A stretch of 64,000 bases of DNA from Candidatus Zhuqueibacterota bacterium (lineage in GTDB: Bacteria; Zhuqueibacterota; Zhuqueibacteria; Residuimicrobiales; Krinioviventaceae): the NCBI GenBank assembly GCA_016929295.1, contig JAFGJB010000153.1:10830-74829 (forward strand). The letters are read 5' to 3'. A program made the position numbers and the translations under genes. The notes under the pieces were generated by a model. The model ran no database searches. It was given only the letters and a program-made list of their open reading frames with translations, and was not told where the DNA came from. Positions 9,540 through 55,323 of this stretch are shown one piece after another. Positions within the stretch are counted from its first letter, which is position 1. Each line of letters starts with the position of its first letter.

Positions 9540-10835
9540 TTACAGGAGCGATTTGTCTTTATATTCAATATAAACCTGTCTTTTCATTTGCTCGAGCCAC
9601 TTTTCCAGCTCTTTTTGTTTTTTATAATTCAGCGCCAACGCCTCAATACGATCATAATCTTTATCAAGATCAATTTCCCGCGCCTGCTCGCGCGAATTCA
9701 ATTTCAGTATATGAAATCCGTATTGCGTTTTGACAGGATCACTGATTCCACCCACCTCGACGCCTTCGAGTGCAAAAATGAATTCTTTGGCCATGCTGCG
9801 CAGTTGCTCGACTTCATAGACGCCCAGATGTCCGCGATCATTTTTGGTGGACTCATCGTCTGAAAACTCCTCAACCAAAGCGACGAAATCAGCGCCGTCT
9901 TGCAACTGTCGATGAATATCTTTGATCCTGGCTGCGGCGGCGATTTCATCCTCTCGCGTGGGTGTGATGCTGATCAGTATATGACGAGTATGAATTTTTT
10001 CGCCTCGTTTGTCTTCCAGTTTGATGATATGGAAGCCGAACTGGCTTTCAACAATGTCTGATAGTTCTCCGGGTTGCAGGCTGAAGGCGGCTTCAGCGTA
10101 TTCTTTCACAAACTCATCGCGCGACATGAAGCCGAGGTCACCGCCGCGTTGGGCAGAACCCGGGTCAGCCGATTGCTTGGCCAATTCGGCAAAGTCCGCG
10201 CCATCCAGCAGCTCTTTGCGAATTTGAATCGCTTTTTCCATGGCTTCCATTCTCGCTTTTTCGCCCGGCTGCGTCTCGACGAGAATATGGCTGATATCAA
10301 CCGTATCATTAATTCTGCCGAGAGAGTCTTTCATCGTATTATAAAATTCTCTCACCTCGCGCCGATTGACCGTCACATTCGCCAATTTCTGTTCTTGCAC
10401 CGCATTGGCGCGCAATTCCTTTTCAATGTCATCCCGATAATTTCGCCGTATTCGCGAGATCGTCATGCCAAATATCTGCTCCAGTTTTTCCTCGCCGCCG
10501 GCCTGTTGTGTGGCCATTTGCATTTGCTGATTGAGATACGTTTCAATCTGCTGTTCATCCGCATTTATGGTGTCTTTATCTGCCTGGATGACGAGCAGTT
10601 CTTTGGTCACGATATTATTCGCGGCGATCTTGCGAAATTCAGCAAATTTGGTCTGATCGCGCGCCGGGTCAACGCCCATCTGCGCCGCCATCATCCAGGC
10701 CATCTGCGTGACTTCCGATTCCAGTACAATCTCGTCATCAACAACCGCGACGATGCGATCGAGCAGTTCCTGCCCGGACAGCATCGTCAGCAGGATGAAA
10801 ATGGTGCTGAAAATGATTTTTCCGATTCGCTTCAT
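9540..10835 (-). CDS. SurA-like periplasmic chaperone / PpiC (parvulin)-type peptidyl-prolyl isomerase
   Basis: Signal anchor, SurA N-domain-like region, and two parvulin motifs (GGDLGFMSRDEF..FGFHIIKLEDKR and DRGHLGVYEVEQL..YGFHILKL). Confidence 0.8.
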   Translation of the reverse strand: MKRIGKIIFSTIFILLTMLSGQELLDRIVAVVDDEIVLESEVTQMAWMMAAQMGVDPARDQTKFAEFRKIAANNIVTKELLVIQADKDTINADEQQIETYLNQQMQMATQQAGGEEKLEQIFGMTISRIRRNYRDDIEKELRANAVQEQKLANVTVNRREVREFYNTMKDSLGRINDTVDISHILVETQPGEKARMEAMEKAIQIRKELLDGADFAELAKQSADPGSAQRGGDLGFMSRDEFVKEYAEAAFSLQPGELSDIVESQFGFHIIKLEDKRGEKIHTRHILISITPTREDEIAAAARIKDIHRQLQDGADFVALVEEFSDDESTKNDRGHLGVYEVEQLRSMAKEFIFALEGVEVGGISDPVKTQYGFHILKLNSREQAREIDLDKDYDRIEALALNYKKQKELEKWLEQMKRQVYIEYKDKSLL

Positions 10836-10838
10836 TTT

Positions 10839-11720
10839 TCATCTTTCCAATTTAAGGGAATCAAGATAATTCCACTTTATGTCAATCTTTGCCTCTTCGT
10901 TCAGCTGGCTCAACAGCTCTTTATAGCTGTCTTCCCGATTTCGTGCCTTGACGCGCCATTCGATGATATCCCGGACTTCTTCAAGTTCCTGCACCTTGCC
11001 TTTTTCGCGAATGTCGCGAACGAGGACCAAATAGTAGCCGAGTGATGTATAGATTGGCGTCGACACTGTGTTGAGAGACAAGCCGGCAAGTCTTCTCGCA
11101 ATTTGCTCCGGCAGCCTGTCGGGCGTGATCCAGCCCATGTTGCCGCTACTCTCTTTGCTGGCGTCTATCGAGCTCTCCTTGGCGAGCGTTGCAAAATCTT
11201 CTCCAGCCGCAATTTTTCCTCGTATTTCATAGGCCTCTGTTGCCGACTTTAAAAGCATAAGCTGAATATTGTAAAAATCCTTGTCGCGGACGAACTCTTC
11301 CGCGTTTTCATTATAGTACAAAAGAATCTCACTCTCGGATACCGACAGGTTGCTGTCAATTTTTTCCTGCAAATAGGCTGCGACAATAAAGTCTTTGTTC
11401 AATTCGTAAATTTTCTTCTGTACGGCTGGATTCTTGTCGAATTGTTCAACAAGAGCCTGCTGGTAAATCAACTCTTTTTCAGACCATCTCTGAACATAAT
11501 TTTGCAGCTGAATTTTAGACAGTTGCAGTCCAGGATTGCTGTTGAGTATGGCTCTTATTTCATCCAGGTGCAAAGTTGCATTGCCAGAAGATGCAACAAC
11601 GGGCGAGTCCTCCATTGCACCATCACGATTGCTGCACGACACAATAGTCAAAATCACTGCAAAAAAGAGAATCCCGTGAACTCGCACCTTACTCATCAGA
11701 CTGCTCTCGCTCCTTTTCAA
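10839..11720 (-). CDS. PpiC (parvulin)-type peptidyl-prolyl isomerase
   Basis: Signal peptide/lipobox-like ILFFAVILTIVSCS. Parvulin domain SGNMGWITPDRLPEQIA...LGYYLVLVRDIREKG. Confidence 0.7.
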   Translation of the reverse strand: MKRSESSLMSKVRVHGILFFAVILTIVSCSNRDGAMEDSPVVASSGNATLHLDEIRAILNSNPGLQLSKIQLQNYVQRWSEKELIYQQALVEQFDKNPAVQKKIYELNKDFIVAAYLQEKIDSNLSVSESEILLYYNENAEEFVRDKDFYNIQLMLLKSATEAYEIRGKIAAGEDFATLAKESSIDASKESSGNMGWITPDRLPEQIARRLAGLSLNTVSTPIYTSLGYYLVLVRDIREKGKVQELEEVRDIIEWRVKARNREDSYKELLSQLNEEAKIDIKWNYLDSLKLER

Positions 11721-13401
11721 TCACGTCTCGATAGACAAAAACAGGATATTTTTTTCTCAGCTCATCCATCCACTCACGGTTCAACTGATCCCGGCGTGCA
11801 ATCCGTTTTTCTCTGCGAATGGCGAGTCTCACTTGGTCGAACGGCTTGGGTGCATCGGCCTGTCGCTCCAGGATCTTTATTATGGAATAACGATTGCCGA
11901 TTTTAATTGGTTCCGATATTTCACCGGCTTTCATTTTAACCGCCGCCCTGCCGATTTCGCCGTGATCTCTTCGGGTGACATAGCCTAACATTCCATCATC
12001 ATTGTTCTCTCTGTTATCGCCAAAATTGCGCACAAGCGTCGTAAAATCTTCCGTCAATGCTTTCTGATGTATTTCACGGGCTCTGGTGGAATCGGACAGC
12101 TGCAGTTCCTGCACCTTGACACGGACATTTTCCTCGTACAGATGCGTATTGGCGTTATAGTGAGCCACCAGTTCCTCATCTGTTATTTCGGCATTTTGAT
12201 CGATCTTGAGGCGTTGTATTCGTTGTATCATGGCGTTCTCTTTTTGCCGCAAAACAGCCTTCCGCACGCGCTCGCAGCGCTGCATTCGAGTTTTATAACC
12301 GTGATGTATCATGATTTTCCGCGGCACATTTCGATTTAAAAATTCAAGAACGGCAGCGGTATCCACCAGGGCCGGGCGTCGCATCGGCGATATCCGCTCA
12401 TAGGTGGTCAACAGCTCCGCAAAAGTATACTCACCACCTCTGAAGGAGGCGAGAGGAATTTGGCGTTCAGATAATGATAAAAACCCGGCAAACTGCCGCG
12501 GATCGCGGCGCAGGTTCACTTTCTCTTCTGTATGATTCTTCTCGGTGGCGTCGATCAGCACCAGTATGGTGTCGATCTTGTCCCGAAATATCTGCCCGTC
12601 ATACTTTTTGAACATCGCATCTCTGTAGGCGAAATAGGCGCTGTCCAATCTTGCGCTATTTTCACGAATCAGTTGTCGCTCGATATTTTCTTTTTCCTTT
12701 TCGAACGGTCCTTGAGCAACCGCGCGAATTTTAGCGACTTTGACCAGATGCAGCCCTTTGTCTGAGACAAAAGCCTTTGATACCTGCCCTTCTCTCAACG
12801 CCGCCACCTGCTGCATAAAGGCCTCGCCCCAGCTATTAACATCCCAGCGGATGAATCCCAGATCGCCATTCTTGCCGGCGCTTTTGGCGTCGCGCGAATA
12901 TTCACGCGCCAGTGCGCCAAAATCTTCGCCACGTAAAGCTCTCGCGCGCAACGAGTTCAGCTGTTGCATCGCCTGAGCAGAATCCTGCGTGAGGGGCATG
13001 AAGATATGACGGACCTGCCACTCTTTGGCATTTTCATAGCGCTGTCGAATCATTTTTTTGCTGATGACTTTGCGGATGACATCCCGTTCGATGGTATTGG
13101 ACAAAACCTCGCGCGTCTCGAAATCATTCATCCGCGACAGCACAACGGAATCCTGTTCAAAGCCGGAATTATAGGCGTCCATCAATTTCAGCTTTTCTTC
13201 CACCAGTCTGTCGACAATTTTTAACACCTCTGACAGAGAGTTCGCCGGCGTGCGTGCAGCCTGGATCTCTTGTTCAAGATCCTGCAGGCTGATGACATAG
13301 TTGCCGACGCGCGCAACAACCGGCCGTCGTTCGCACGTCGGGGAAAACATCGTAAAAATCATAAAAACAGCAAGATATATAAAAATAAGATGTTTTTTCA
13401 T
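11689..13401 (-). CDS. PpiC (parvulin)-type peptidyl-prolyl isomerase, SurA/PpiD-like
   Basis: Signal peptide. Two parvulin-like segments (NGDLGFIRWDVNS..KGLHLVKVAKIR and DDGMLGYVTRRDHGEIG..RYSIIKILERQ). Confidence 0.75.
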   Translation of the reverse strand: MKKHLIFIYLAVFMIFTMFSPTCERRPVVARVGNYVISLQDLEQEIQAARTPANSLSEVLKIVDRLVEEKLKLMDAYNSGFEQDSVVLSRMNDFETREVLSNTIERDVIRKVISKKMIRQRYENAKEWQVRHIFMPLTQDSAQAMQQLNSLRARALRGEDFGALAREYSRDAKSAGKNGDLGFIRWDVNSWGEAFMQQVAALREGQVSKAFVSDKGLHLVKVAKIRAVAQGPFEKEKENIERQLIRENSARLDSAYFAYRDAMFKKYDGQIFRDKIDTILVLIDATEKNHTEEKVNLRRDPRQFAGFLSLSERQIPLASFRGGEYTFAELLTTYERISPMRRPALVDTAAVLEFLNRNVPRKIMIHHGYKTRMQRCERVRKAVLRQKENAMIQRIQRLKIDQNAEITDEELVAHYNANTHLYEENVRVKVQELQLSDSTRAREIHQKALTEDFTTLVRNFGDNRENNDDGMLGYVTRRDHGEIGRAAVKMKAGEISEPIKIGNRYSIIKILERQADAPKPFDQVRLAIRREKRIARRDQLNREWMDELRKKYPVFVYRDVIEKEREQSDE

Positions 13402-13464: not shown

Positions 13465-16400
13465 TTATAACATACTTTGCAAGAACTTTTTGGCATCTGT
13501 CAGGTTCGTTTCTTTGCGGGACATGGTCATGGCAAAGCCGAGCTTTTCTTCGCCGTGTAAGAGCTCAAAACTGTCCGGAGCCTGTCGGATGATGTCAGCC
13601 AGCCAGGGTCGGAACTTGTCGCCTTGCGGGATCGCTGCGTAATCGAATTCTCCGCTCAGCCGGCCATTGTGAATGGTCACTTTTTTGAGGCGCAGCTGAC
13701 GTGCGGCCATTTTTATCAGAATATAGTCGATGAGATTTTGTGCCTGAGCAGGGATATCGCCAAATCGATCCAGGAGTTCTGTCCTCATGTCGTCGACCTC
13801 GGTCGCCTTGCGCGCCCTCACCAACCGACGATAGATATCAACTCGCTCCGCTGATGAGGTGACGTAATTCTCCGGCAGATAGGCATCCGCGTCGCACTCC
13901 ACTTTGGCCGCAAAAGAATCGTCCACTTGAACATCATCGTTCATATTCAAATCACGGCGAATCTCGGCGATCGTTTCCTGAATGATTTTGGTATACAGTT
14001 CATAGCCGAGGGCATTGATGAAACCTGTCTGCTCCGCGCCAAAGACGTTGCCAGCGCCACGGATTTCCAGGTCGCGCATGGCGATTTTATATCCGGCGCC
14101 CAGCTCCGAATATTCCTGAATCGTCTGCAATCGTTTGATCGCATCGCGCGTCATTTTCCGCATCGACGGGATGAGCAAGTAGGCGTAAGCTTGCTGGTCG
14201 GATCGTCCGACGCGTCCGCGCAGCTGATAGAGCTGCGCCAGGCCGAATTTATCCGCTCGATGAATGATGAGCGTATTGGCATTTGGCATGTCAATGCCGG
14301 ATTCAATGATCATCGTGCAGACCAGGACGTGCACTTTGCCTTCGATGAATTGCAGCATGATCTTTTCCAGTTGATGGCCTTTCATCTGGCCATGGGCCAC
14401 GGCGATGTTGGCTTCGGGAACGATCTCGTTCAATAGAGCGCTCACGCCATGTATGGATTGCACCCGGTTGTGCACAAAAAAGACCTGTCCGCCGCGATCC
14501 ATTTCCCGCAAGATCGCCTCACGGACGAGCTCGCGATCGAATCTGCTCACCTCGGTTTTGATGGCCAGTCGATTATGCGGAGGGGAATTGATGATGGACA
14601 TATCCTTGGCGCCCATGAGAGCGAGGTGCATTGTGCGCGGAATCGGCGTCGCGGAGAGCGTCAGTGTATCGACGGTCTGTTTCAAAAGCTTTATTTTCTC
14701 TTTATGAATGACGCCAAATCGCTGTTCTTCGTCGATGATCAGCAGACCAAGATCATTGAACTGTACGTCCTTAGACAGCAAACGATGTGTGCCGATGATG
14801 ATATCCACCTCGCCGTTCGCGAGTTTTTCGAGTATGTTTTTCTGCTGTCCGGTTGTTTTGAAGCGAGAAATCACTTCAACAAGGACGGGAAACTGCGCCA
14901 GTCGTTGCTGGAAAGTGGCGAAATGCTGTTCGGCTAAAATGGTGGTCGGGACGAGGATGGCCACCTGTCTGCCGTCAGTGACCGCCTTGAATGCGGCGCG
15001 AACGGCGACTTCTGTTTTGCCATAGCCGACATCCCCGCAGATGAGTCGATCCATGGGTTGGGCGGCCTGCATATCTTTTTTAACCTCGGCGATCGCGCTC
15101 AATTGATCGACCGTCTCTTCAAACTGGAAGGACGCTTCCAGCTCTTTCTGCCACACTGTATCCTCCGAAAAAGCATATCCCGGACGCATTTTGCGGGTAG
15201 CATAGAGCTTGATCAGATCCTCGGTGATTTCGCGCATGCGTTTTTTGGTACGTTTTTTCAATCTCTCCCAATTGGGACTGCCGAGCTTGTTCAGCACCGG
15301 CACAGCGCCTTCGGCGGACGAGTATTTTTGCACCTGATCCATTTTTTCAAGCGGCACATAGAGCTTGTCACCGTCCTGATAGAACAGTGTCAAGCATTCG
15401 CGAACCTTGCCATAGGCCTTGATTTTCTCAAGACCGCCGAAAGAACCGACGCCATAGTCATTATGGACGACATAATCGCCTTTTTTGATTGATAATCGCT
15501 CGCGAAAAGAGACTGAGCCCCTTTGCACTGGACTGAGCGCGTGCATTCGTATGCGGCTGTATAATTCACGCGTGGTGAAGACATGGAGATTCTTTGCCGG
15601 CCAGGAGAATCCGTGCGACAGATTCAAAGTGCATATGTGGATAAGTGGTGGAAAACCCTCTTCACGGAACAGCTCGATCATTCTATCTCTCTGACTATCA
15701 GTGTCGCACACAAGACAAACGACTGGCGGCGCTTTGGTGGATAAAAGGTGATCAAAATCCTGGCGAAACAATTTCAAGTTTCCGCCGTAATGGCCGTTTT
15801 CCCGAATGCCAAAATGGATGGCATTCTCATCCTGATCCGCAAAAGGCTTCACCTGGATGACGGGCCGTTTTTGCAAGCGTTCATCCAGTTCATCGGCGCT
15901 GCTGTAATAGTCGCCATAGGCAGGTTCGTCCGGCGCCCCTGCTTCCGCCACACTTTCAAAATGAACCATGGCCTGCCGCTCATGGTCCCGCAGCGCCGCT
16001 TGAATGAGCGCCTTGTTTTCAAGCCACAGGACGAACTCTTCATCCAGATAATCAAAAACAGTACATTTCAAGTCGAGATCGAGGAGGGTGCGCGCCTCGA
16101 CCGGGCCATAAGGGCCGGCGCAGCCGAGAGGCAAAATTCGTAGGGCGGAACATTTTTCGACAGATCGTTGCGTTTCAGCATCGAATGACCGAATGGATTC
16201 GATGGTGTCGCCCCAGAATTCAATGCGAAACGGATTTGGCCGTTCAAAAAGAAAGACGTCCACCAGACCGCCGCGGACGCTCATCTCTCCAGGGATGTCC
16301 ACGCGCTCCTCGCGACTGAATCCCATTTCCACCAGTTGTTTGACAAAGAGATCGAAAGGGGTTGTATCGCCGACCTGCAATGACAGGCTATACAGCTCAA

Positions 16401-16815
16401 CATCAGCGGGATCCGCCACCTTTTCCAGAAGTGCGGGCGCGGCGGTGATGAAAAAGCGGGCTGTCTTGGTCATGAGAGCATCAAGCGCCAAAATTCTGCC
16501 GCCGACCTGGGATCGCAGTGGGCCGAGCTCGTTCCATAATTTTGCCCCCAGCGCCGGATAGTAGACCACTTTTTCGTCATCAACCAGCTCGCGTATATCG
16601 GCAAAAAAGTGTTCTGCCTGCGACTCGCTCTCGCAGACGCAGAAAAATTTTCGTCGCAGACGTTGGTGCAGAGATGAAATCAGAAAGGCAGTGGCTGAAC
16701 CGGCCAAGGTGGCGACCGTCACATTCCGATGCTGTTCAACCCTGTTTTGAACGACATCGAGATTTTTTTCACCAGAAAACGCTGATCTGATTTTATCCAC
16801 AGCTGTCATCAACAC
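13465..16815 (-). CDS. mfd: Transcription-repair coupling factor Mfd
   Basis: 1116 aa. UvrB-homology N-terminus, RNAP-interacting domain, DEAD/DEAH superfamily-2 helicase motifs ([22 protein letters not shown]), and a TRG/translocation C-terminal region. Confidence 0.95.
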
Positions 16816-24204: not shown

Positions 24205-24747
24205 TTGCCACTTGGGTCGCCTATGTCCGGAATATATTCAACATTAAGATCGTGTTATCCCTGTTATTTGATACTGATCTCGATCGTATCAATCGTCTGC
24301 ATTTATCTCATTTCTCTTTTATACAAAAAACAGCCCAAAATATTTTGGACTATACTGATAACATCGATGGCGGTCAGCATATTCACCCTCGCCACGCAAC
24401 GGTTTTTCTTTCCCAGGTTCTTCAGACTTTTTTCTCTCATGTGCGGCAGACAACAACAGGTTGCGGAAGAATGGATCATCTATGATACTGATCCGCGCAA
24501 CGATGTCTTCATCAAGGGCAACCTGCGCTACGGCGAGTTGCGACGTCTCGATTCGGTGCTGATGCATGAAAAGAGAAACTACAACGGCATGCGTCTTGAC
24601 AGCGCCACCTTGAATGAATATGCCAAATACGATCCCCAGATAATCGATGCCTATGATCGCTGGCGTAAATGCAAGGATATGCGCCGCTCCTACCACAAGA
24701 GCATCTATCCCGATGAGCGCAGATTATACTATTATTTAAGGGACTAG
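24205..24747 (+). CDS. Hypothetical membrane protein (2 TM plus basic/aromatic C-terminal domain)
   Basis: ORF only. First gene after the minus-to-plus strand switch and followed by a clean intrinsic terminator. Start uncertain. Confidence 0.45.
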   Translation: MPLGSPMSGIYSTLRSCYPCYLILISIVSIVCIYLISLLYKKQPKIFWTILITSMAVSIFTLATQRFFFPRFFRLFSLMCGRQQQVAEEWIIYDTDPRNDVFIKGNLRYGELRRLDSVLMHEKRNYNGMRLDSATLNEYAKYDPQIIDAYDRWRKCKDMRRSYHKSIYPDERRLYYYLRD

Positions 24748-24791
24748 ACTTTCTTCACGGAACAAAAATGAACGTATAAAATATAATAGAT

Positions 24792-24817
24792 AAACCCGAA
24801 ATGACTCGGGTTTTTTC
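24792..24817 (+). terminator. Rho-independent terminator
   Basis: AAACCCGA-AATGAC-TCGGGTTTTTT: 8-bp stem, 6-nt loop, T6 tract, 45 nt after the stop at 24747. Confidence 0.65.
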
Positions 24818-24835: not shown

Positions 24836-25756
24836 ATGAAAATGCATTTCTTCGTCATTCTCTTGTTTGTCGCGATAGCGCCCCTGCTGCCATCCGAAAG
24901 AAAGCTGAATGCCACCTTCCTTTTCGCTTTTGGCGAAAAAGGCGAACAACCGGCACAATTCAATCGCCCCCTGGGCGTGTCGGCAGATGCCAAAGGCAAT
25001 GTTTACGTCTCGGATAGCGGCAATAACCGGCTGCAGAAATTTACGCCGCAAGGAGAGTTGATTGCATTCATCGGCGGTTTTGGCTGGGAAAAAGAGCAGT
25101 TTCAATTCCCGATAGATATATTTGTCTACAATTCACTGGATATCTTTGTCGCTGATTTTGATAACAACAGAATCGAGCGCTATGACAAGGACTTGAATTG
25201 GCTGACCAGCTACTATTCGAACGACAACTGGTCAGCAAAGATGCGCTTTCTCTTTCCCATCTCCGTTTGCGTGAGCCTGCACGGCGATTTTTTCATCGTT
25301 GATTCCGAGAATGATCGGGTCATTAAACTCAACGCTTCTTTTGAACCCGAGCTCTCCTTTGGCGATTATGATTGGGGTGCGGGTGTTCTTCAGGAAGCTT
25401 CACACATCTATGTCTCAAAGAACGATGTCATCTATGTGACGGATCCCGGGGCGCATAAAATCCTTGTCTATGATTATTACGGCAATTTTCTCTATGATGT
25501 GGGCGTCGGTGAGCTTGTCACACCCAAAGGTCTGTGCGTCGATGACCAGGAACAGATATTTGTCGCTGATGCCAGCAAAAATCAGGTCCTGACATTCGAC
25601 AAAAACGGCCGTTTGCTTTTGACAATCGGCTCTTTGAGCAGCAAGTTTGCAGGATTTAATGAACCCTCGGATGTCACCATCATTCGCGATAAACTGTATG
25701 TTGCGGATACGCAGAATCATCGAATTCAGATTTTTCAGCTTGCATGGGAAAACTAA
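24836..25756 (+). CDS. NHL-repeat (six-bladed beta-propeller) secreted protein
   Basis: Signal peptide. Repeated GVSADAKGNVYVSDSGNNRLQKF / FVADFDNNRIERY / FIVDSENDRVIKL / YVTDPGAHKILVYD / FVADASKNQVLTFD / YVADTQNHRIQIF blocks match the NHL repeat. Confidence 0.75.
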   Translation: MKMHFFVILLFVAIAPLLPSERKLNATFLFAFGEKGEQPAQFNRPLGVSADAKGNVYVSDSGNNRLQKFTPQGELIAFIGGFGWEKEQFQFPIDIFVYNSLDIFVADFDNNRIERYDKDLNWLTSYYSNDNWSAKMRFLFPISVCVSLHGDFFIVDSENDRVIKLNASFEPELSFGDYDWGAGVLQEASHIYVSKNDVIYVTDPGAHKILVYDYYGNFLYDVGVGELVTPKGLCVDDQEQIFVADASKNQVLTFDKNGRLLLTIGSLSSKFAGFNEPSDVTIIRDKLYVADTQNHRIQIFQLAWEN

Positions 25757-25759
25757 ACA

Positions 25760-28700
25760 TTGGCTGTAAATCGGGCTCATACATGGAAGATCACTCTCTT
25801 CTCCATCCTTTTTATGGCCATCGTCCTCTCTGCACAAACGACCGGCAGGCTCGGCGCCATTTCTCTTTTTGATAAAGATCTCGTCATGCTGGGAGAAGAC
25901 CGCCGCGGGCCTTATCTCCTTCCCGACAGTCTCATCATTGAAAATTCAGCACAGGTCTTTTTGGACGATGTGCAACAGTCCCCTGATGCCTTTGCAATGA
26001 ATTATGTCGCTGGTGAATTACGATTCAATAAATCCATTGCCAAAGATGTCAAAATTCGCGTCATTTATAAAATATTGCCCGAGCCGCTGCGCAAGACCTA
26101 TGCCCATCGCACTATTCAGCATCGCGTTTTTGGCGCTCCTACAGCGTCAGAACAGATCACCGCGCCCGGCGATCAGGAAGACTATGCCGCCCAATTGACA
26201 AAAAGCGGCAGCATCACTCGCGGCGTCACCGTCGGTTCCAACAGAGGTCTGAAAGTAAATTCAGCGCTCAACATCAATGTCAGCGGCAAAGTCGGCGACA
26301 ATGTTGAAATTGTCGCCGCCCTGACCGATCAGACGACGCCCATTCAGCCGGAAGGCACCACGCAAAACCTTCAGGAGATCGACAAGGTTTTCATCCAGAT
26401 AAAATCGACCGAATTGGCTGCTACTATGGGTGATTTTCAGATCTCATATGACCAAACGCAATTTGCCCAATATAATCGCAAACTCCAGGGCGCGTTGGGC
26501 GAGGCCAAGTATGATAAAATTCAGGCGGCCGCCTCTGCCGCGGTGTCGCGCGGGAAATATCATTCCATGCAATTCAATGGCCAGGAAGGCAACCAGGGCC
26601 CCTATCAACTCAAAGGCGACCGCGGCCAGAGCTACATCATTGTCCTGGCCGGCACAGAGCGAGTCTTCATCGACGGCGAGCTCATGGTGCGCGGCGAAAC
26701 AAATGACTATATCATCGATTATGCCGCCGCACAGGTCATCTTTTCGCGCCGCCGACTCATCACTTCTGATTCGCGTATCACGGTGGATTTTCAATACTCG
26801 GATGAACAGTACAGACGCAATCTCTACTCCGCTTCGGTGAATACAAACCTGTGGGACGAGCGGATTCATCTGCGATCCGTCTATCTTCATGAGGCGGATG
26901 ATGAGGAGAACCCCCTGGATTTCACCCTCAGCGATGACTATAAAAAAATCCTTCAACAAGCCGGAGATGATCAACTCAAGGCGGTCATCGAAGGCGCCAC
27001 TTTTGTCGGGCCGGAAAAGGGACGCTATAATTTCATCGACAGCGTCTATGTCTATGCCGGCGAAAAACTGGGCGACTATAACGTTGTATTTTCCGATGTT
27101 GGCGATGGCCTGGGTAGCTATCAGTATAACGGCAATGCTGTCTATAAATTCGTCGGCGAGGGCGAGGGCCAATTTGCTCCGGTGATCATTCTGCCGCTGC
27201 CCAAAAGTCATGATATCCTCGATTTATCCGTAAGTTTTTCACCATTGAAATTCCTCAACCTGTCCAGCGAATATGCCTTGAGCAATTTTGACAACAACTC
27301 TTTTTCAACAGCGGACAAAGATGATGATGTCGGCCTTGCGTACAACTATACAATCGATGTGCGGCCGAAAAACATCAAAATGTTCGGCAAGAATATCGGC
27401 AATCTGACTTTGACAGGTAAATACAAAAACGTCGACAATGACTTTTCAGATATCGATCGAACGACCGAAATAGAGTACACGCGTCGCTGGGATTTGCCCG
27501 ACTCTTCGGGAAGGGAGGAGGTGGTGAAGGAGTTTCGCACCCTCTACGAGCCCTTCAATGGATTCGGCATCGGTGGCGAAATTGGCAACATTCAAAAAGG
27601 CAACTATTTTAGGTCAGATCGCTGGCAGATCGAAAATTATTTCAGATATAATAAAATGCCGTCTGTAAATATCCGCGTGGAAAAAATTGACCGCCAGAAC
27701 GTGAACCAGAATCGACAGGCCGAGTGGTGGCGACAGCGCGGCGATGCAGAATGGGACATTTGGAAACTCAAACCTTTTTTTCGCTATGAGGGTGAAGTTC
27801 AAAAGGAGAGCTGGGCGGATACACTTCATACCGGATTAAAATTTGACGACCTCACAGGCGGGCTTGAAGTGAGACCTTTTGACAAGCTGCTCGTCTCCGG
27901 CCGTTTATCGCAACGCGATGACAAAGACTATACAGGATACGGACAGTTCCGTGATAAATCTTTCGCCAACACGCAAAACGTTCAAATACAGCTGCAACGC
28001 ATCAAGGAATTCAGCGCGTCCCTCGATCTGACCCATCGCGTCAAAAAATATGCGAATAGCGAATTAAGCGACAGCAATACGGACCTGGCTGAATTGCGCA
28101 TGCAGTTGACACCGTGGAAACGCGCCTTGAATGCCAATCTCAATTATATGATTTCCAATACAGCGACGGCCAAAAAGGAAAGAATCTATATAAAGGTGGC
28201 AGATGGGGAAGGCACTTTTCGATATGATCAAGATCTTAATGAATATGTCTATGATCCGCTCGGCAACTATGTGTTGCGCATTCTCACGACCGATCAGTTG
28301 ATACCAACCATCGAAATGAAGACAAGCACACGCGTTCGCCTGGAACCAAGCAATCTGTTTGCTCCGAAAACTTCTGATAGCACCGACGGATCTTTCTGGA
28401 GCAAATCCCTGCGCGCTGTTTCATCCGAAACCTATATCGCTCTGGAGGAACGCACGCAGACGGATGATGCGATGGATGTTTACCTGCTGCGCCAGCACAC
28501 ATTCCGCCAGCCAGGAACGACCATCCTGGGTTCTCTCCAGCTGCGCCAGGATCTCTATCTGTTTGAGCGTAATCGCGATTTTTCAGTTCGCTATCGATAC
28601 CTCACGCGCGATGAGTTGAACAATCAGTTTCTCGAGGGTGGCGAAGAGCGCAATGAACATGAGAATGCCCTGCGCATCACCGCGCGACTGTCACAGTTTT

Positions 28701-29182
28701 TCAGCTCACAATCGGAGATAAGCCAAAAAAGGATGCGTCGTTTTTTCGACTATGCCGGCAAACAAAATCGGGATATCCAGGCAACCCTGTTGAACTCGGA
28801 TCTGTCCTACGCACCGACGACCATCATCAAATTTGCGCTGGAGGGTCGCCTGTCGTGGGAAGAGGACGTCGTATATGAAACGCCCACACAGGTGCAATCC
28901 TATGCGCTGACGCCAAGAATCACCTATTCGATCCGTAATCGTGGTCGTCTGAGCGGCGAGTTTGAATGGAGCTATGTCGATGCCACTCCGGACGATCGCG
29001 TGCTGCCGTATGAGATGGCGAGTGGCCGAAGCATTGGACAGTCCACCCGCTGGGATATCCGCTTCGATTATCGGCTATCCAGCGCCATCCAGGCAACCCT
29101 CTCATATTCCGGTCGTAACGAGCCGGAACGCGAGCAGGTGATACACACCGGCAGAGCGCAGGTGACGGCCGCTTTCAGATAG
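25760..29182 (+). CDS. Giant (1140 aa) cysteine-free predicted outer-membrane beta-barrel protein
   Basis: Cleavable signal peptide (..FMAIVLSAQ). I found no Cys on scanning the 1140 residues by eye. Pervasive alternating polar/hydrophobic beta-strand pattern with Y/F/W/N/D/R-rich turns. C-terminus ..AQVTAAFR. Sits 34 bp upstream of the Omp85 gene. Confidence 0.55.
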   Translation: MAVNRAHTWKITLFSILFMAIVLSAQTTGRLGAISLFDKDLVMLGEDRRGPYLLPDSLIIENSAQVFLDDVQQSPDAFAMNYVAGELRFNKSIAKDVKIRVIYKILPEPLRKTYAHRTIQHRVFGAPTASEQITAPGDQEDYAAQLTKSGSITRGVTVGSNRGLKVNSALNINVSGKVGDNVEIVAALTDQTTPIQPEGTTQNLQEIDKVFIQIKSTELAATMGDFQISYDQTQFAQYNRKLQGALGEAKYDKIQAAASAAVSRGKYHSMQFNGQEGNQGPYQLKGDRGQSYIIVLAGTERVFIDGELMVRGETNDYIIDYAAAQVIFSRRRLITSDSRITVDFQYSDEQYRRNLYSASVNTNLWDERIHLRSVYLHEADDEENPLDFTLSDDYKKILQQAGDDQLKAVIEGATFVGPEKGRYNFIDSVYVYAGEKLGDYNVVFSDVGDGLGSYQYNGNAVYKFVGEGEGQFAPVIILPLPKSHDILDLSVSFSPLKFLNLSSEYALSNFDNNSFSTADKDDDVGLAYNYTIDVRPKNIKMFGKNIGNLTLTGKYKNVDNDFSDIDRTTEIEYTRRWDLPDSSGREEVVKEFRTLYEPFNGFGIGGEIGNIQKGNYFRSDRWQIENYFRYNKMPSVNIRVEKIDRQNVNQNRQAEWWRQRGDAEWDIWKLKPFFRYEGEVQKESWADTLHTGLKFDDLTGGLEVRPFDKLLVSGRLSQRDDKDYTGYGQFRDKSFANTQNVQIQLQRIKEFSASLDLTHRVKKYANSELSDSNTDLAELRMQLTPWKRALNANLNYMISNTATAKKERIYIKVADGEGTFRYDQDLNEYVYDPLGNYVLRILTTDQLIPTIEMKTSTRVRLEPSNLFAPKTSDSTDGSFWSKSLRAVSSETYIALEERTQTDDAMDVYLLRQHTFRQPGTTILGSLQLRQDLYLFERNRDFSVRYRYLTRDELNNQFLEGGEERNEHENALRITARLSQFFSSQSEISQKRMRRFFDYAGKQNRDIQATLLNSDLSYAPTTIIKFALEGRLSWEEDVVYETPTQVQSYALTPRITYSIRNRGRLSGEFEWSYVDATPDDRVLPYEMASGRSIGQSTRWDIRFDYRLSSAIQATLSYSGRNEPEREQVIHTGRAQVTAAFR

Positions 29183-29216
29183 TTGTACAAATTTTTAACT
29201 ATATTTATTTTCGACG

Positions 29217-30986
29217 ATGAAAAATTTGATCAAATATTTTACCCTCTTTTTCCTTTTGCCGGCTCTGTCGCAGCAGGCGCAAAAACGCATCACCGTCGCG
29301 GAAATCGAGTTCTTTGGTGCGGAACGCGTCTCAAGACGGATGGTGCAAAAATGGGCCGATCTGCAAAAAGGAGATCCTTTTCAACCGGACGAGCTGCTGC
29401 AAAAATGCGTTGCGATTTTGCAGGGATATAAATCGGCAGGTATGCCGTACACTCGGATCGACTCGCTCACCTATTCTATCTCACCCGACAGCAGTGCTGC
29501 AACGGTCCGCTTTTACATCCGCGAAGGGGAGCATGTCAATACGGGCGAGTTGACGCTCGCAGGACTGGATAGCAATGAAGCAGAAAATATCAAGAGATCT
29601 TTATATACAAAAACCGGCAGACCTTTCGATCGCGACAAACTGGAGCGCGATCTGGATGAAAGCATCACAAACCTGGAAAAACAGGGCTTCCCATTTGCCA
29701 AATACGATCTGCAGTCCCTCCGACTGGATTCAAGTTTGAAGGCCGACCAGCTGAGCTTCACCTTCAAAGTGTCGAAAGGACCCCGTCTTGTAATACAGGA
29801 AATTCAGATCGCCGGCAATGAGGTGACAAAAGACAAGGTCATACGCAGAGAAATCAGAATTAAAGAAGGCGAGCTGTATGATTATAAAAAAGTGGCCAAA
29901 ATTCCGACGAAACTGATGAAACTGGGTTATTTCCGCCGCGTGCATGAGCCCGCTGTATACATCGCGGAGGGCGATGCAGGTGGCCTGCTCATCACTGTGG
30001 AAGAGGGCAACACGAGCTCTTTTGACGGCGTGGTGGGTTATACGCCGGGGACGGATGAAGAAAAAGGCTATTTCACCGGCCTGATCAATGTCAATCTGGG
30101 CAACCTGTTCGGCACCGGCCGGGTTTTTTCTGCGCATTGGCAAAAGCGGGATAAAACATCTCAGGATATGATGTTTCATTACCGGGAACCATGGGTCGCC
30201 GGTCTTCCCGTCCATCTGGGTGGCGGCTTTAATCAGCTCATTCAGGATTCAACCTACATACAACGTGACTATGGAATGGATGTCTCTGTCCCTCTGGTCG
30301 AAAATTTTTCTGTCATTGCCGACATCAAAAAAATGAGCATATTGCCCGACTCGCTGGGAAGCCACATGCTGGGCATACCGAAAAGCGAAACCGTCAGCGC
30401 CTCTATCGGCATTCAGTACGATTCACGAGATGACGCGCTCAATCCGCAGTCCGGCATCTACTATTTCACCAGCATCGAAACCGGCGCCAAAAAGAATCTT
30501 GGTCCGGATGAGATCATCGATACATATAAGCTCGATCGGCAAGTTGACAACAAACGCTTCGTCATTGATATTGATTTCTATATTCCGACATTCCGTCGCC
30601 AGGTTGTGGCGCTCGCTTTGCATGGTCGACAAATCACCAGCACGGAACAGCATATTCCGCTTACTGATCAATATCGTCTGGGCGGCACACGTTCACTGCG
30701 GGGTTATCGTGAGGATCAATTCCGCGGCTCCGGCATTGCCTGGACAAACATGGAGTATCGCTATATCCTTGGACCTCGCTCCAGAGCCTTCGTGTTTTGT
30801 GACGTCGGTTACTATTATGCCGCCAATTCGCGCGGCGTGGTCGAAGACCTGAAAATTGGCTACGGTTTTGGCGTGCGTCTGGAAACCGGGCTCGGCATCA
30901 TGGGCATCGATTATGGTCTGGCCTATGGTGAAAAGCAAGGGCTGATGAGCGGCTTGTTGCACGTGGGATTGGTCAATGAATTTTAG
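29217..30986 (+). CDS. Omp85-family outer membrane protein with 3 POTRA domains (TamA/BamA-like)
   Basis: Signal peptide. POTRA-like repeats (ITVAEIEFFGAERV.., ..VIQEIQIAGNEVT..). C-terminal surface antigen D15 barrel ending ..LLHVGLVNEF (terminal aromatic). 589 aa fits TamA-sized rather than 5-POTRA BamA. Confidence 0.8.
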   Translation: MKNLIKYFTLFFLLPALSQQAQKRITVAEIEFFGAERVSRRMVQKWADLQKGDPFQPDELLQKCVAILQGYKSAGMPYTRIDSLTYSISPDSSAATVRFYIREGEHVNTGELTLAGLDSNEAENIKRSLYTKTGRPFDRDKLERDLDESITNLEKQGFPFAKYDLQSLRLDSSLKADQLSFTFKVSKGPRLVIQEIQIAGNEVTKDKVIRREIRIKEGELYDYKKVAKIPTKLMKLGYFRRVHEPAVYIAEGDAGGLLITVEEGNTSSFDGVVGYTPGTDEEKGYFTGLINVNLGNLFGTGRVFSAHWQKRDKTSQDMMFHYREPWVAGLPVHLGGGFNQLIQDSTYIQRDYGMDVSVPLVENFSVIADIKKMSILPDSLGSHMLGIPKSETVSASIGIQYDSRDDALNPQSGIYYFTSIETGAKKNLGPDEIIDTYKLDRQVDNKRFVIDIDFYIPTFRRQVVALALHGRQITSTEQHIPLTDQYRLGGTRSLRGYREDQFRGSGIAWTNMEYRYILGPRSRAFVFCDVGYYYAANSRGVVEDLKIGYGFGVRLETGLGIMGIDYGLAYGEKQGLMSGLLHVGLVNEF

Positions 30987-31590: not shown

Positions 31591-31794
31591 ATGCTCAAAG
31601 CGGCATTCAAAAAAATCAAAGAGGCCGATAGTTATAAAAAAAGAGGCGTCCTCTATGCGTCGGTGGCGATTCTTTTCATGCTCTATGAATTCATTTTTCA
31701 TCGCCCGCCGCGTCTGACTGTTTTATTATTGTGGCTCGGCCTCCTCATCATAGCCGTTTTTGTTATGACCACCTTGAAGGATCCGCGACGATGA
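31591..31794 (+). CDS. Small hypothetical 2-TM membrane protein
   Basis: 67 aa ORF, 14 bp after the SpoU stop. Hydrophobic segments VLYASVAILFMLYEFIF and VLLLWLGLLIIAVFVM. Overlaps the next gene start by 4 bp. Confidence 0.35.
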   Translation: MLKAAFKKIKEADSYKKRGVLYASVAILFMLYEFIFHRPPRLTVLLLWLGLLIIAVFVMTTLKDPRR

Positions 31795-33743
31795 AAAAAT
31801 ATCTATTGACGCTCTGTATCATTTCGATGCTGCGGGCGCAAGACAAACATGCCACCGATTTGTTCTTTTTAAGCAAAATGCCCGCAGCCGTCGAAGAGAT
31901 CAATCCCATCGATGTCATCAGTTATGATGTCGATATGACTTTGGATCTGCAAAATGAAAAGATCAGCGGCCATGTTCGGATGGAGATAAAGCTGCTTGAT
32001 CCGACAGCACCCTCTTTTTACATCCATTTGACAACGCCCCGTATTGCCAAAGCCATGTTGAATGGTGATGAAATTTCCTTCCTCCATGCTGCTGACAAGG
32101 TCTATTTCACTCTGCTGTCACCAGCAGAGGATATCACTTTAGACATTGATTACAGCGGCACTCCCGGCAATGACGGATTCGGCGGCTTTTATTTTCAGGA
32201 CAGCTATGCCTATACCATTGGCCAGGGGCTCAATTCCACCATTCCATCCATGCTGCGCCACTGGATTCCATCTCATGATGTCCCGCACGACAAAGCGACG
32301 GTTGACATGCGGCTCACCGTGCCGGCTGCGCTCGAGGCATTTGCAAACGGCTCACTGGTCACATCCGTCACTCACAACTCCACCAAAACAGTTCACTGGC
32401 GAGAGACCCATCCAATTGCCACCTACTTGATCGCCATTGCGGTCGGCCATTATACCATACTGCGTTCCACTTATCGTTCCATCAGCGGAGATTCCATCCC
32501 GCTCGAATTTTATGTTTACCCCGAACATGCGGCGGCGGCGGCAAATGACTGGAAAAACTTACCCCAAATGATGGGCTTTTTTGAACATCATTTTGCACCC
32601 TATCCATTTGACCGCTACAGCATGGCAGAGGCTTTCAATCGCGGCGCCATGGAACACCAAACGATGACCACCTATTCCTATCAGCTGATCACCGGCGATA
32701 ATCGATATGACTATATTATGGCCCATGAATTGGCGCACCATTGGTGGGGTGATCTGGTCACCCTGGCTGACTGGAGAGAGATCTGGCTGAATGAGGGATT
32801 TGCCACCTATTCCGAAGCCCTCTATTTTGAATCGCTTTACGGCGATGACTATTTGGCCGAATACATGAATGCACTTTTGGAAATCTATTTGGCCGAGGTG
32901 GTGCGCCGCGGTCATTTTCCAATCTACAATCCGGATTATCTGTGGGGTGGAACGATTTATCAAAAAGGCGCATGGGTGCTGCATATGCTGCGCTGGACCA
33001 TTGGCGAAGATGCTTTTTGGCGCACCCTGCAAAGCTGGGCGCACCGTTTTGCCTACGGCAATGCCTTCATCACCGATTTCATCCGCCTGGCAGAAGAACA
33101 GTCTTCCCAGGACCTGGATTGGTTTTTTGATCAATGGATCTATCAGGCCGGCTATCCGGATTTTGATATCATTTGGGACTATAGATTGAATGACAAGCGC
33201 ACCTGGTCAGTGACCATCGAGATCAGACAGCAACAATGGCAGAACTTCCCGTTCAGGGCGCCAATCGAAATCGAATTCGAATTTGCCGGCGGCTCGCGGC
33301 TGGATACGCTCATCTCATCTGCTGCATATCAGACCTTTCAGATTGAACTGCAGAATGAGCCGTACGCATTACATCTTGACCCGCGTAACTGGCTCTTGAA
33401 GCAGTATGATCTCATTTTTTCTCCATCTCTGCCGGATGCACAACCAAACGATTTTTACCTCGCGCAAAACTATCCCAATCCATTCGTCACTGGCTCGCAA
33501 ACATCTATCGTCTATCAGGTAGCGCAAATGGATTCTCCGCACCAGATGAGCATCCAGGTTTATAATATACTCGGCCAGCGAGTGAGCACACTCTTTGATG
33601 GACCATTACATGGCGGCATCTATAAAGCGGTCTGGGATGGGAAGGATATGGCGGGAAGGACTGTTCCATCGGGTGTCTATTTTTATCGTCTGCAATCTGC
33701 TGAAAAAACATATGAAAGAAAATTGGTCATATTGGAAAAATAG
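31791..33743 (+). CDS. M1-family zinc aminopeptidase with T9SS C-terminal sorting domain
   Basis: Start chosen at MKKYLLTLCIISMLRAQ (signal peptide). GAMEHQTMTTY (GAMEN motif), HELAHHWWGDLVT (HExxH) and downstream E (WLNEGFATY). C-terminal ..NYPNPFVTGSQTSI..GVYFYRLQ..KLVILEK matches the T9SS CTD. Confidence 0.85.
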   Translation: MKKYLLTLCIISMLRAQDKHATDLFFLSKMPAAVEEINPIDVISYDVDMTLDLQNEKISGHVRMEIKLLDPTAPSFYIHLTTPRIAKAMLNGDEISFLHAADKVYFTLLSPAEDITLDIDYSGTPGNDGFGGFYFQDSYAYTIGQGLNSTIPSMLRHWIPSHDVPHDKATVDMRLTVPAALEAFANGSLVTSVTHNSTKTVHWRETHPIATYLIAIAVGHYTILRSTYRSISGDSIPLEFYVYPEHAAAAANDWKNLPQMMGFFEHHFAPYPFDRYSMAEAFNRGAMEHQTMTTYSYQLITGDNRYDYIMAHELAHHWWGDLVTLADWREIWLNEGFATYSEALYFESLYGDDYLAEYMNALLEIYLAEVVRRGHFPIYNPDYLWGGTIYQKGAWVLHMLRWTIGEDAFWRTLQSWAHRFAYGNAFITDFIRLAEEQSSQDLDWFFDQWIYQAGYPDFDIIWDYRLNDKRTWSVTIEIRQQQWQNFPFRAPIEIEFEFAGGSRLDTLISSAAYQTFQIELQNEPYALHLDPRNWLLKQYDLIFSPSLPDAQPNDFYLAQNYPNPFVTGSQTSIVYQVAQMDSPHQMSIQVYNILGQRVSTLFDGPLHGGIYKAVWDGKDMAGRTVPSGVYFYRLQSAEKTYERKLVILEK

Positions 33744-45780: not shown

Positions 45781-46221
45781 GTCAAGTTTTATATTTGCAT
45801 TTTCTGCAAAACCGCACGTTGACTATTATCCCTAAAAAAAGCAGAGTTGGCAAAGATTTAATATGTTCTATAAACAATCTATAATAGGCTATTAATAGTC
45901 CCTCAGAAACTTGGCCGCTTTCGAAATATTCTGCTTTTAAAGGTTGTTCTCCATATAAAATAATGCCGGGGAAATTAAATCGAACCAAAAATCTACTATG
46001 TGACAATACTTGATATGCCGTCCCGGGAATAGTTAACGATCTTTATATTTTGCACCGACTGTTCTGTAGAATAAGTTTCGCTTCTCATAACTGATATTTT
46101 TCAGGAAATGCATGTAAGCGCCCCCAAGCCATACTGTGAAGGAAAAGACGAAATTGATTGGCTTGAAAAATGGGGCACGAGGTGCGATCCGAAAACAGAT
46201 GCTACTCTATTGGAGAGAGAA

Positions 46222-49425: not shown

Positions 49426-49432
49426 TAGCCTC

Positions 49433-52405: not shown

Positions 52406-52426
52406 AAACAAAAAAGGAGAACTAAA

Positions 52427-52789
52427 ATGAAAGTGCTATGCAAAATTTTGATTGTAGCCTTTATCATTCTCTCAATTTCGGGATGCAAGGAATACACAAA
52501 ATTTAAAGTCAGTATTATCAACGACAGTTCATCTGAAATTACAGAAATTGAGCTGGGGATGATTGGCGTAGAAAAGACCGTTTCAGTTAATAGCCTGGCG
52601 GTTGGAGCAAGTACAAAGGTTTTTGTATTTTTATTGAAAAAGCTAGAGGAAGGCGTACCAGTACCAATTAGCTATGGTGATTATAGAGGTGGCTATAGTC
52701 AAAAAGGTGAAAAAAAACCCATATTTATTACCACACCTAATAAAAAAATTGAAATCAAAATAAATGATGATTCCTATTCCCCGATCTAG
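52427..52789 (+). CDS. Small lipoprotein (120 aa), third gene of island operon
   Basis: Lipobox ..FIILSISGC. RBS AAGGAGAAC 6 nt upstream. 21 bp after the NLR gene stop. Low GC like the NLR gene. Confidence 0.55.
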   Translation: MKVLCKILIVAFIILSISGCKEYTKFKVSIINDSSSEITEIELGMIGVEKTVSVNSLAVGASTKVFVFLLKKLEEGVPVPISYGDYRGGYSQKGEKKPIFITTPNKKIEIKINDDSYSPI

Positions 52790-55314: not shown

Positions 55315-55323
55315 TTGCAAAAC

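Follow-up and report, generated by a model that had tools for sequence, protein, structure and literature searches.

To our knowledge, SprA is the largest single-chain outer-membrane barrel. The SprA/Sov proteins (TIGR04189, PF14349; PDB 6H3I) are built of around 2400 residues, with over 150 kDa of the chain in an extracellular cap and with a lateral opening, and work with demonstrated partners, PorV, Plug, PPI, SprE and SkpA, to export cargo that bears a C-terminal sorting domain. The SprA barrel comprises 36 strands, and the cap helps to bind the C-terminal sorting domain, CTD (PMC10994853). SprA is present in all FCB phyla but Chlorobiota (PMC12611786).

Two other envelope systems pair an Omp85 protein with a large partner or with a second barrel. 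In the TamA-TamB arrangement, an Omp85 protein of ~580 aa with three POTRA domains is encoded beside a very large envelope protein, TamB, which is an inner-membrane-anchored AsmA/DUF490 beta-taco. The clusters encoding BamA, the essential sole OMP insertase with five POTRA domains, are usually found at a pyrH-frr-type location. In Bacteroidota the BAM complex includes an integral barrel subunit (PMC12611786); this BamA-bound subunit, BamG, is a 14-strand FadL-type barrel.

The locus analyzed here, from a candidate division KSB1 genome, has features in common with all of these systems. Its central gene encodes a giant predicted barrel of 1140 residues, best read as a distant, half-size relative of SprA/Sov, and it is flanked by genes for a secreted NHL propeller and an Omp85 protein.

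Organization of the locus

The locus lies in a 64-kb stretch of DNA, referred to below as the window. The three genes are tightly packed in the order NHL propeller, giant barrel, Omp85, and the re-analysis of open reading frames reproduced exactly the coordinates and the spacers (3 nt between NHL and giant, 34 nt between giant and Omp85) given in the earlier note.

24754-24782, promoter-like site (consensus scan)
24792..24813, both strands, bidirectional terminator-like hairpin just upstream of the NHL start (consensus scan)
24836..25756, + strand, gene for an NHL-repeat protein, 306 aa (Pfam NHL 1.4e-34)
25760..29182, + strand, gene for the giant outer-membrane beta-barrel, 1140 aa, TTG start (predicted barrel)
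29217..30986, + strand, Omp85-family gene, 589 aa (Pfam POTRA and Omp85)

Judged by consensus alone, the hairpin and the promoter-like site probably form the 5' edge of the three-gene unit. As the NHL stop codon lies 3 nt before the giant start, the NHL and giant genes are probably translationally coupled. The TTG start is also that of NCBI entry JW998_07555 (100% identity), which is annotated as 'hypothetical'. A 180-aa ORF at 24205-24747 was considered as a further gene; it has no family match and is probably not one. Genes for CTD-bearing type IX secretion system (T9SS) cargo lie elsewhere in the window and many type-A CTD proteins are encoded in the genome.

Composition and predicted fold of the giant protein

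The giant, first described as apparently cysteine-free, contains no cysteine among its 1140 residues. Given the background of 0.91% in the remaining proteins of the window, the probability of such an absence is ~3e-5. The depletion is family-wide, since 169 of 248 relatives have no cysteine beyond residue 30, which approximates the mature protein. The N-terminus, MAVNRAHTWKITLFSILFMAIVLSAQ|TT, reads as a cleavable Sec-type signal peptide, in agreement with the initial proposal; the structural model places a helix at residues 8-22 followed by disorder at 23-34. The C-terminus (...VTAAFR) is beta-signal-like, and in the family 183 of 248 relatives end in Phe and 59 more in Phe-Arg. No Pfam family was assigned to the giant, and Pfam and NCBIfam detected no OstA/LptD, usher, SLH, peptidoglycan-binding, DUF490/AsmA or TPS domain in it. 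The family is unnamed in both collections.

AF2 was run twice on the giant, and the second run, with an input of 70 sequences, gave a model with pLDDT 88.4 and pTM 0.77. The model predicts that a single chain forms an outer-membrane beta-barrel with some 36-40 strands, and the closed state of the barrel likewise rests on it. The soluble beta-helix or taco (TamB/AsmA-like), named earlier as the outcome that would speak against a very large outer-membrane barrel, was not what the prediction returned. The beta periodicity that had been noticed from end to end is not strictly continuous: it is broken by a separate domain (38-105), a disordered segment (116-142) and inserts at ~274-338 and ~386-482. 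The putative parts of the protein are as follows.

25760..25837, + strand, signal peptide, residues 1-26, with the cleavage-type motif ...LSAQ|TT
25871..26074, + strand, N-terminal small beta domain, residues 38-105 (AF2 strands, pLDDT 80-93; hhalign match to SprA)
26198..26407, + strand, the family's most conserved stretch, residues 147-216 (invariant alignment columns)
26579..26809, + strand, SprA-type small beta domain inserted between barrel strands, residues ~274-350 (TIGR04189 and hhalign matches)
26915..27205, + strand, second inserted domain, residues ~386-482, a helix and short strands (AF2 secondary structure)
27206..29179, + strand, residues 483-1139, 29 long antiparallel strands that form the main run of the barrel (AF2 pLDDT mostly >90)

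The most conserved stretch consists of predicted strands at 147-159, 165-179 and 182-190 (pLDDT 76-84), followed by an invariant IQPEG[NT]TQ loop modelled with lower confidence (~58), and its hairpin covariation is strong (z 8.2 and 4.5). Plain MI was swamped by gap and phylogeny noise in this family, and ladder scores were used instead. In the main run, where the modelled connections between strands are mostly very short (2-7 residues), mean covariation reached 0.030 for adjacent strands versus 0.014 +/- 0.007 for non-adjacent ones. Strands 369-385 and 483-496 also covary (ladder score 0.042, z 3.6), which identifies them as neighbours despite the 97-residue insert; by strand parity in the model, this second inserted domain is probably extracellular. 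Covariation thus supports the predicted strand neighbours, including pairs split by inserted domains, and together with the model it lends weight to the view of the giant as a very large barrel. For the last strand, covariation was seen with residues 1108-1117 (z 4.5) and 202-211 (z 4.0); for the closing seam of the barrel this evidence is only suggestive.

When the model was compared with the PDB, the longest alignment was obtained with SprA (6h3i_A, 612 residues), followed by SlpA (408) and TonB-dependent transporters (~260). LptD, MtrB and the FimD usher, which like SlpA share the large beta-barrel fold, were also among the matches. None of these structures matches the whole barrel, and the partial alignments have a low TM-score or a high rmsd. 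The identification of the giant as LptD was rejected, as no Pfam or NCBIfam match supports it and the Foldseek result (E 4.5e-7, TM 0.15-0.20) reflects generic barrel similarity.

Relationship to SprA/Sov

The giant itself does not match TIGR04189 even at E<=1, and Pfam PF14349 (SprA_N) is absent from it. The sequence link is provided by its relatives: 26 of 42 diverse family members match the Sov/SprA model, with a best E of 8.7e-10. The matches are local, covering model positions 602-686, equivalent to residues ~274-350 of the giant, and their scores do not exceed 36 bits versus a cut-off of 200. The comparison of the giant family with verified Flavobacterium johnsoniae SprA by hhalign gave scores of 39.5, 34.1, 29.6, 27.3 and 24.6, with reversed and shuffled controls peaking at 21.8. 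The best alignment pairs giant residues 280-377 with SprA 680-778 (39.5), the second pairs 46-92 with 685-731 (34.1), and the third pairs 1096-1117 with 2353-2374 (29.6); a weak, collinear match joins 160-193 to 165-198. Three of the matches, one each in the N-terminal region, in the inserted domain and in the C-terminal strands, are collinear in the two proteins. From these alignments, the SprA-type small domain appears to occur twice in the giant, residues 38-105 being the second copy and probably located in the periplasm. The family HMM gave only marginal domain matches to F. johnsoniae SprA, and, against the relationship, PDB sequence searches with three family profiles (A1, A4 and the domain profile A6) and with member P0359 returned chance matches only, SprA not among them. 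The local but significant matches of the relatives strengthen the connection with T9SS or outer-membrane biogenesis that had been suggested for this locus.

The giant resembles SprA in its predicted fold, a single-chain giant outer-membrane barrel with a comparable predicted number of strands, in the small inserted beta domain common to both, and in its restriction, among the carriers listed, to FCB lineages. In contrast, the giant has 1140 residues versus ~2400, and its family scores far under the SprA cut-off. Strand parity assigns only ~280 residues in total to its extracellular loops, and with connections mostly of 2-7 residues in a chain of this length a cap the size of SprA's would not fit; the giant lacks one. 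The partners demonstrated for SprA are not demonstrated for the giant, and SprA, unlike the giant in some phyla, is not encoded together with an Omp85 protein and an NHL propeller. A cap-less, half-size relative of SprA would offer a minimal version for studying giant-barrel architecture.

Family distribution and synteny

At E<=1e-3 the family takes in 4382 representative clusters (50%-identity representatives); the stricter E<=1e-30 leaves 2308. Relatives of the giant are encoded in at least 538 species genomes, all bearing FCB-type labels among those listed; the named carriers are KSB1, Zhuqueibacterota, Zixibacteria, Calditrichota, Ignavibacteria and some Chlorobiota/Bacteroidota MAGs, with Chloroherpeton-type Chlorobiota MAGs among those reached. 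Cultured species among the carriers are few (Melioribacter, Ignavibacterium); the uncultured ones number in the hundreds. With this family, thousands of 'hypothetical proteins' receive a name and a model. Literature searches on T9SS or SprA in KSB1, Ignavibacteria and Caldithrix found nothing relevant.

The co-occurrence of the NHL/giant/Omp85 trio in other FCB genomes, raised earlier as a check, was observed: it was found in KSB1, Zhuqueibacterota, Zixibacteria, Calditrichota and unclassified relatives, between flanking genes that vary. In ~24 of 84 loci the gene directly upstream of the giant is an NHL orthologue, and in ~26 loci a ~590-aa Omp85 orthologue follows the giant. Two MAGs labelled 'uncultured Ignavibacteria' (L076, L083) carry the trio. 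In loci with the labels Ignavibacterium, Melioribacter or Chlorobiota, neither NHL nor Omp85 adjoins the giant, which indicates that the Omp85 partnership is not obligatory in cis. The gene neighbourhoods of the giant are of housekeeping type; pyrH-frr is directly upstream of the trio in five loci, and the order in L003 is rpsB-tsf-pyrH-frr-NHL-giant-Omp85.

The adjoining Omp85 and NHL proteins

The Omp85 protein has a signal peptide, three POTRA domains (~26-275), a 16-strand-type Omp85 barrel (~296-589) and a terminal Phe (...VNEF). Pfam finds POTRA in three stretches (7.8e-27) and Omp85 (4.7e-22), in accordance with its earlier description as a TamA-sized protein with three POTRA domains. 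The architecture fits TamA, but the TamA model (NF047950) scores 48 bits (cut-off 625) versus 193 bits for BamA (TIGR03303, cut-off 297), and among PDB entries it is matched best by Neisseria BamA (POTRA3-5 and barrel, E 6e-24). The protein is therefore closest to BamA by score and not TamA-like; it is not a typical BamA either, as 193 bits is under the curated cut-off and three POTRA domains are present rather than five.

The NHL protein carries a signal peptide and no lipobox and reads as secreted. Besides NHL, Pfam assigns SGL and DUF5128 six-bladed propeller families to it, and PDB matches are to the NHL propellers of TRIM71 and Brat; the secreted propeller placed upstream of the giant by the earlier note is thus borne out. 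It was rejected as a BamB-like lipoprotein, being a six-bladed NHL and not an eight-bladed PQQ-like propeller, with no Cys in the signal region; a periplasmic beta-propeller beside an Omp85 is nonetheless a feature shared with BAM.

The resemblance to BamA raises the alternative that the Omp85 protein is the housekeeping BamA of these organisms, with only three POTRA domains, and that the giant and the NHL protein serve as additional subunits of BAM or as the client that demands most of BamA. In that case the propeller would be BamB-like, the giant would sit beside BamA like BamG, and the locus would serve general outer-membrane biogenesis instead of being a dedicated module. The family and PDB matches favour this, as do the pyrH-frr genes upstream of some trio loci, the absence of a second Omp85 gene from the window and the precedent of an integral barrel subunit in Bacteroidota. 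However, the score below the cut-off and the number of POTRA domains argue against it, and uppS, cdsA, rseP, skp and lpxD, the usual neighbours, were not seen among the flanking genes scanned. BamG, with its 14 strands compared to ~40 in the giant, was rejected as an analogue, the NHL protein is neither a lipoprotein nor PQQ-like, and the giants of Ignavibacteria and Chlorobi adjoin no Omp85. We consider this alternative rather unlikely.

Proposed role of the trio

The explanation that best fits the whole, to which we give about an even chance, is that the giant is a compact, SprA-like channel of large bore, served by an insertase, either dedicated or BamA-like, and by an accessory protein in the periplasm. 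Directed by its C-terminal aromatic signal, the giant would be inserted by an Omp85 machine. The co-transcribed BamA-like Omp85 with three POTRA domains may be this insertase in KSB1 and several sister phyla, or else a stable partner of the giant, and the NHL propeller would assist from the periplasm, as a scaffold bound to the POTRA domains or by plugging the pore. Once mature, the giant may be a gated, very wide channel exporting folded macromolecules, most plausibly proteins, and its pore may be occluded by its own N-terminal region, by its own inserted domains or by the propeller. The pairing of the barrel with its own Omp85 and propeller in several phyla makes the insertion of very large barrels testable.

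In a bolder form, which we hold only tentatively and think unlikely, the giant would be a minimal, ancestral-type, cap-less SprA of ~36-40 strands and itself the protein-conducting pore of a simplified type IX-like or a distinct, so far undescribed export pathway, with a wide distribution across KSB1, Zixibacteria, Calditrichota and Ignavibacteria; in the trio lineages it would make up a dedicated three-part machine together with its own Omp85 insertase or partner and an NHL periplasmic gate. What the family marks may be a new route of export or else, in FCB phyla outside Bacteroidia, the pore of the T9SS.

It is doubtful that these lineages use the giant as their actual T9SS translocon in the outer membrane, in which case it would be a functional orthologue of SprA in minimal form that replaces the 2400-aa protein. 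The SprA-model and weak collinear matches, a predicted strand count near the 36 of SprA, the many type-A CTD proteins, the FCB-type distribution among the carriers listed and a PorV gene 7 kb upstream of the giant in one locus (L004) are all consistent with such a role. Against it, the presence of SprA in all FCB phyla save Chlorobiota (PMC12611786) suggests that the giant probably coexists with canonical SprA and does not replace it. The cap that helps SprA to bind the CTD is absent from the giant, porV, sprE, gldKLMN and plug genes show no recurrent linkage to the giant loci scanned, and the family extends to Chloroherpeton-type Chlorobiota.

The very short loops and housekeeping-type neighbourhoods would also suit a structural or uptake barrel without an export role, such as an abundant giant porin or an envelope organizer like Deinococcus SlpA; this we find improbable, as the SlpA likeness is generic barrel similarity, no SLH or peptidoglycan-binding domain was detected in the giant, and its sequence link goes to SprA and not to porins. 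Finally, although a TamA-sized three-POTRA Omp85 does adjoin a very large protein and weakly matches ShlB (E 0.003, under the cut-off), it is very improbable that the giant is a periplasm-bridging TamB analogue or a TpsA-type Omp85 cargo: the predicted barrel, neither taco nor beta-helix, largely refutes this, DUF490/AsmA and TPS domains were not found, the signal peptide reads as cleavable and not as an anchor, the C-terminal Phe is of OMP type, and TpsB has two POTRA domains versus three here. The initial judgement that this is not the E. coli TamA-TamB arrangement is supported; a two-partner module of the TpsA/TpsB type is not.

The region around residues 274-350 of the giant also weakly matches the phage tail family DUF2460/TIGR02217; the signal is confined to the small inserted domain and does not indicate a phage origin.

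Three adjacent genes for a predicted giant outer-membrane barrel and its proposed partners

The earlier note had described a cysteine-free giant protein encoded between a secreted NHL propeller and a three-POTRA Omp85 protein, and the three open reading frames stand as it had placed them, with spacers of 3 nt (NHL to giant) and 34 nt (giant to Omp85):

24836-25756 (+), secreted NHL propeller, six-bladed, without a lipobox
25760-29182 (+), giant protein, TTG start
29217-30986 (+), Omp85 protein with three POTRA stretches and an Omp85 barrel, C-terminal ...NEF

The source of the window is a candidate division KSB1 bacterium, and the giant is 100% identical to NCBI 'hypothetical protein JW998_07555'. 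Its N-terminal sequence resembles a cleavable signal peptide, and no cysteine was counted in all 1140 residues, an outcome with a probability of about 3e-5 given 0.91% Cys in the other proteins of the window. After residue 30, cysteine is also missing from 169 of 248 relatives. Family members end in Phe (183/248 relatives) or Phe-Arg, C-termini typical of beta-barrel assembly machinery substrates. A 180-aa TTG open reading frame between the nlpC/P60 and NHL genes (24205-24747) matches no family and is unlikely to be a gene; in its place the related KSB1 locus L001 carries two genes, both unannotated (127 and 437 aa).

Predicted fold of the giant protein

A Pfam scan of the giant returned zero matches. 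AlphaFold2 produced a mediocre model from 38 relatives (pLDDT 75, pTM 0.61); with 70 relatives of greater diversity it gave a model with pLDDT 88.4 and pTM 0.77, in which the following parts were distinguished (giant residues):

38-105, small N-terminal beta domain
116-142, disordered linker
147-1139, 36-40 long antiparallel strands, connections mostly of 2-7 residues
about 274-338 and about 386-482, two inserted small domains

Covariation among 248 family members, analysed independently of the model, gave a mean ladder score of 0.030 for predicted neighbour strands versus 0.014 +/- 0.007 for non-neighbours, and the neighbour signal was also seen across the 97-residue insert. For the last strand, covariation was strongest with the strand predicted to lie next to it (z 4.5), followed by residues 202-211 (z 4.0), a pattern suggestive of barrel closure. 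The core idea of the earlier note, an outer-membrane barrel and not a TamB-like taco, is supported by the modelled fold.

Conservation in the family peaks at giant residues 147-216 (window 26198-26407). This stretch, which includes an invariant IQPEG[NT]TQ loop, is the lowest-confidence part of the modelled barrel region (pLDDT about 58). Because its strands covary with the far strands 837-861 and 339-364, we suggest that it is a partner-dependent or lumen-facing element.

Family distribution and relation to SprA

The giant is a member of a very large FCB family that has no name. When 1.84 billion representative proteins were searched with a family profile, 4382 clusters matched at E<=1e-3, of which 2308 reached E<=1e-30, and nearly all of the top 150 were 1050-1250 aa long, fragments aside. 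Relatives are encoded at at least 538 loci in GTDB species genomes; the labelled carriers are KSB1, Zhuqueibacterota, Zixibacteria, Calditrichota, Ignavibacteria (including Ignavibacterium album and Melioribacter), Chloroherpeton/Thermochlorobacter-type Chlorobiota and 'Bacteroidota' MAGs. Source databases name the members only 'hypothetical protein' or, spuriously, 'DUF2460', and neither Pfam and NCBIfam nor the literature that could be searched yielded a description of the family.

In an NCBIfam scan, 26 of 42 diverse members matched TIGR04189, the T9SS outer membrane translocon Sov/SprA (best E 8.7e-10), in every case locally, between the first inserted small domain and model positions 602-686; for the giant of the window itself this similarity was below detection. 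The family profile was also compared with a SprA alignment by hhalign. The F. johnsoniae SprA sequence was checked against databases: residues 1-883 were near-identical to PDB 6h3i_A, whose own residues were used there, the rest matched 884-2403 full-length at 3469 bits, and the complete sequence is 100% identical to database protein P0389.

hhalign matches between the giant family and SprA (control ceiling with reversed or column-shuffled SprA templates, 21.8)
Giant 280-377, SprA 680-778, score 39.5
Giant 46-92 (N-terminal domain), SprA 685-731, score 34.1
Giant 1096-1117, SprA 2353-2374, score 29.6
Giant 65-105 (N-terminal domain), SprA 426-466, score 27.3
Giant 160-193, SprA 165-198, score 24.6

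Three of these (giant 160-193, 280-377 and 1096-1117) are collinear in both proteins; PDB sequence searches with family profiles did not retrieve SprA. On these results, homology of the small inserted domain is well supported; whole-length homology is plausible, with weak support. The giant is a compact distant relative of SprA, best classed with the SprA-type giant barrels, and its operon partnership is new. Membership in the SprA family proper fails on score, size and cap.

Genomic context and proposed role

The proposed pairing of the giant with an NHL propeller and an Omp85 protein is borne out by the recurrent NHL-giant-Omp85 order, although the synteny is not general. In tblastn searches over 84 loci, an NHL neighbour was present at about 24 and an Omp85 neighbour at about 26, with several more cut by contig ends. 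Carriers of the arrangement are KSB1, Zhuqueibacterota, Zixibacteria, Calditrichota and unclassified relatives. Neither neighbour is present at any Ignavibacterium-, Melioribacter- or Chlorobiota-labelled locus, though two 'uncultured Ignavibacteria' MAGs (L076, L083) carry both. The flanks vary, with pyrH-frr upstream (5 loci), UbiA downstream (4 loci) or, in several KSB1 loci and the window, a divergent NlpC/P60 gene. Solo giants lie amid housekeeping genes, with NUDIX, MGMT, UvrD or PfkB downstream. A MacB_PCD/FtsX (LolC/E-like) permease pair directly precedes the giant at L071 (2362-4826), L077 (2088-4552) and about 8 other Ignavibacteria-type loci, which hints at a tie to lipoprotein or envelope export in Melioribacter/Ignavibacteria lacking the three-gene arrangement.

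We propose that the adjacent BamA-like Omp85 would insert the giant via the C-terminal signal of the barrel, that the NHL propeller may act as a periplasmic accessory or plug, and that the barrel could form a gated wide channel exporting macromolecules. One main alternative casts the Omp85 as no more than the housekeeping BamA, encoded in a general biogenesis cluster. The protein scores best as BamA (TIGR03303, 193 bits vs a cut-off of 297) and poorly as TamA (48 bits vs 625), in the PDB it matches Neisseria BamA best (POTRA3-5 and barrel), its orthologues have a uniform length of about 590 aa, and no second Omp85 was found in the 64-kb window. The surroundings of pyrH-frr are the classical place of bamA clusters in other bacteria, and the Omp85 site downstream of these genes in some genomes recalls that neighbourhood. 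The three genes directly follow rpsB-tsf-pyrH-frr, or at least pyrH-frr, at L003 (2818-7894), L009, L012, L015 and L069.

Another main alternative is that in these phyla the giant itself serves as the T9SS pore. The family is confined to FCB-type lineages among those listed, and cargo with T9SS C-terminal sorting domains is encoded in this genome and at several related loci. Since the window encodes at least four such proteins, the organism, judged from its genes, has and uses a type IX pathway; those with type-A sorting domains are:

31731-33743, M1 aminopeptidase
46108-49425, S8 subtilase
52786-55320, CotH-family protein
55719-58328, DUF3160 protein

Against this reading, SprA is stated to be present in all FCB phyla except Chlorobiota (PMC12611786). 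Around the giant loci, no T9SS component genes were recurrently linked; PorV lies 7 kb from the giant at one locus. The remaining main alternative is a structural or uptake barrel. A TAM-like role, and the two-partner module that the earlier note had considered, are essentially excluded by the predicted fold.

Other genes in the window

Three consecutive peptidyl-prolyl isomerase genes (9540-13401, -) adjoin mfd (13465-16815); the first product is SurA-like (SurA_N and two rotamase domains) and the third has 570 aa. An operon-like row of four genes (2333-9525, -), possibly a Bat-like or envelope cluster, encodes:

a 422-aa protein without a family
a 613-aa TPR protein with a weak YfiO/BamD-like match (1e-4)
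a 1120-aa DUF4175 protein
a 248-aa protein without a family

The region 48000-52500, a GC trough (0.37-0.41 vs about 0.49 elsewhere), has the appearance of an acquired island for defence or signalling; within it, 49433-52405 encodes a 990-aa STAND-type protein with DUF4062, NACHT and TPR domains.
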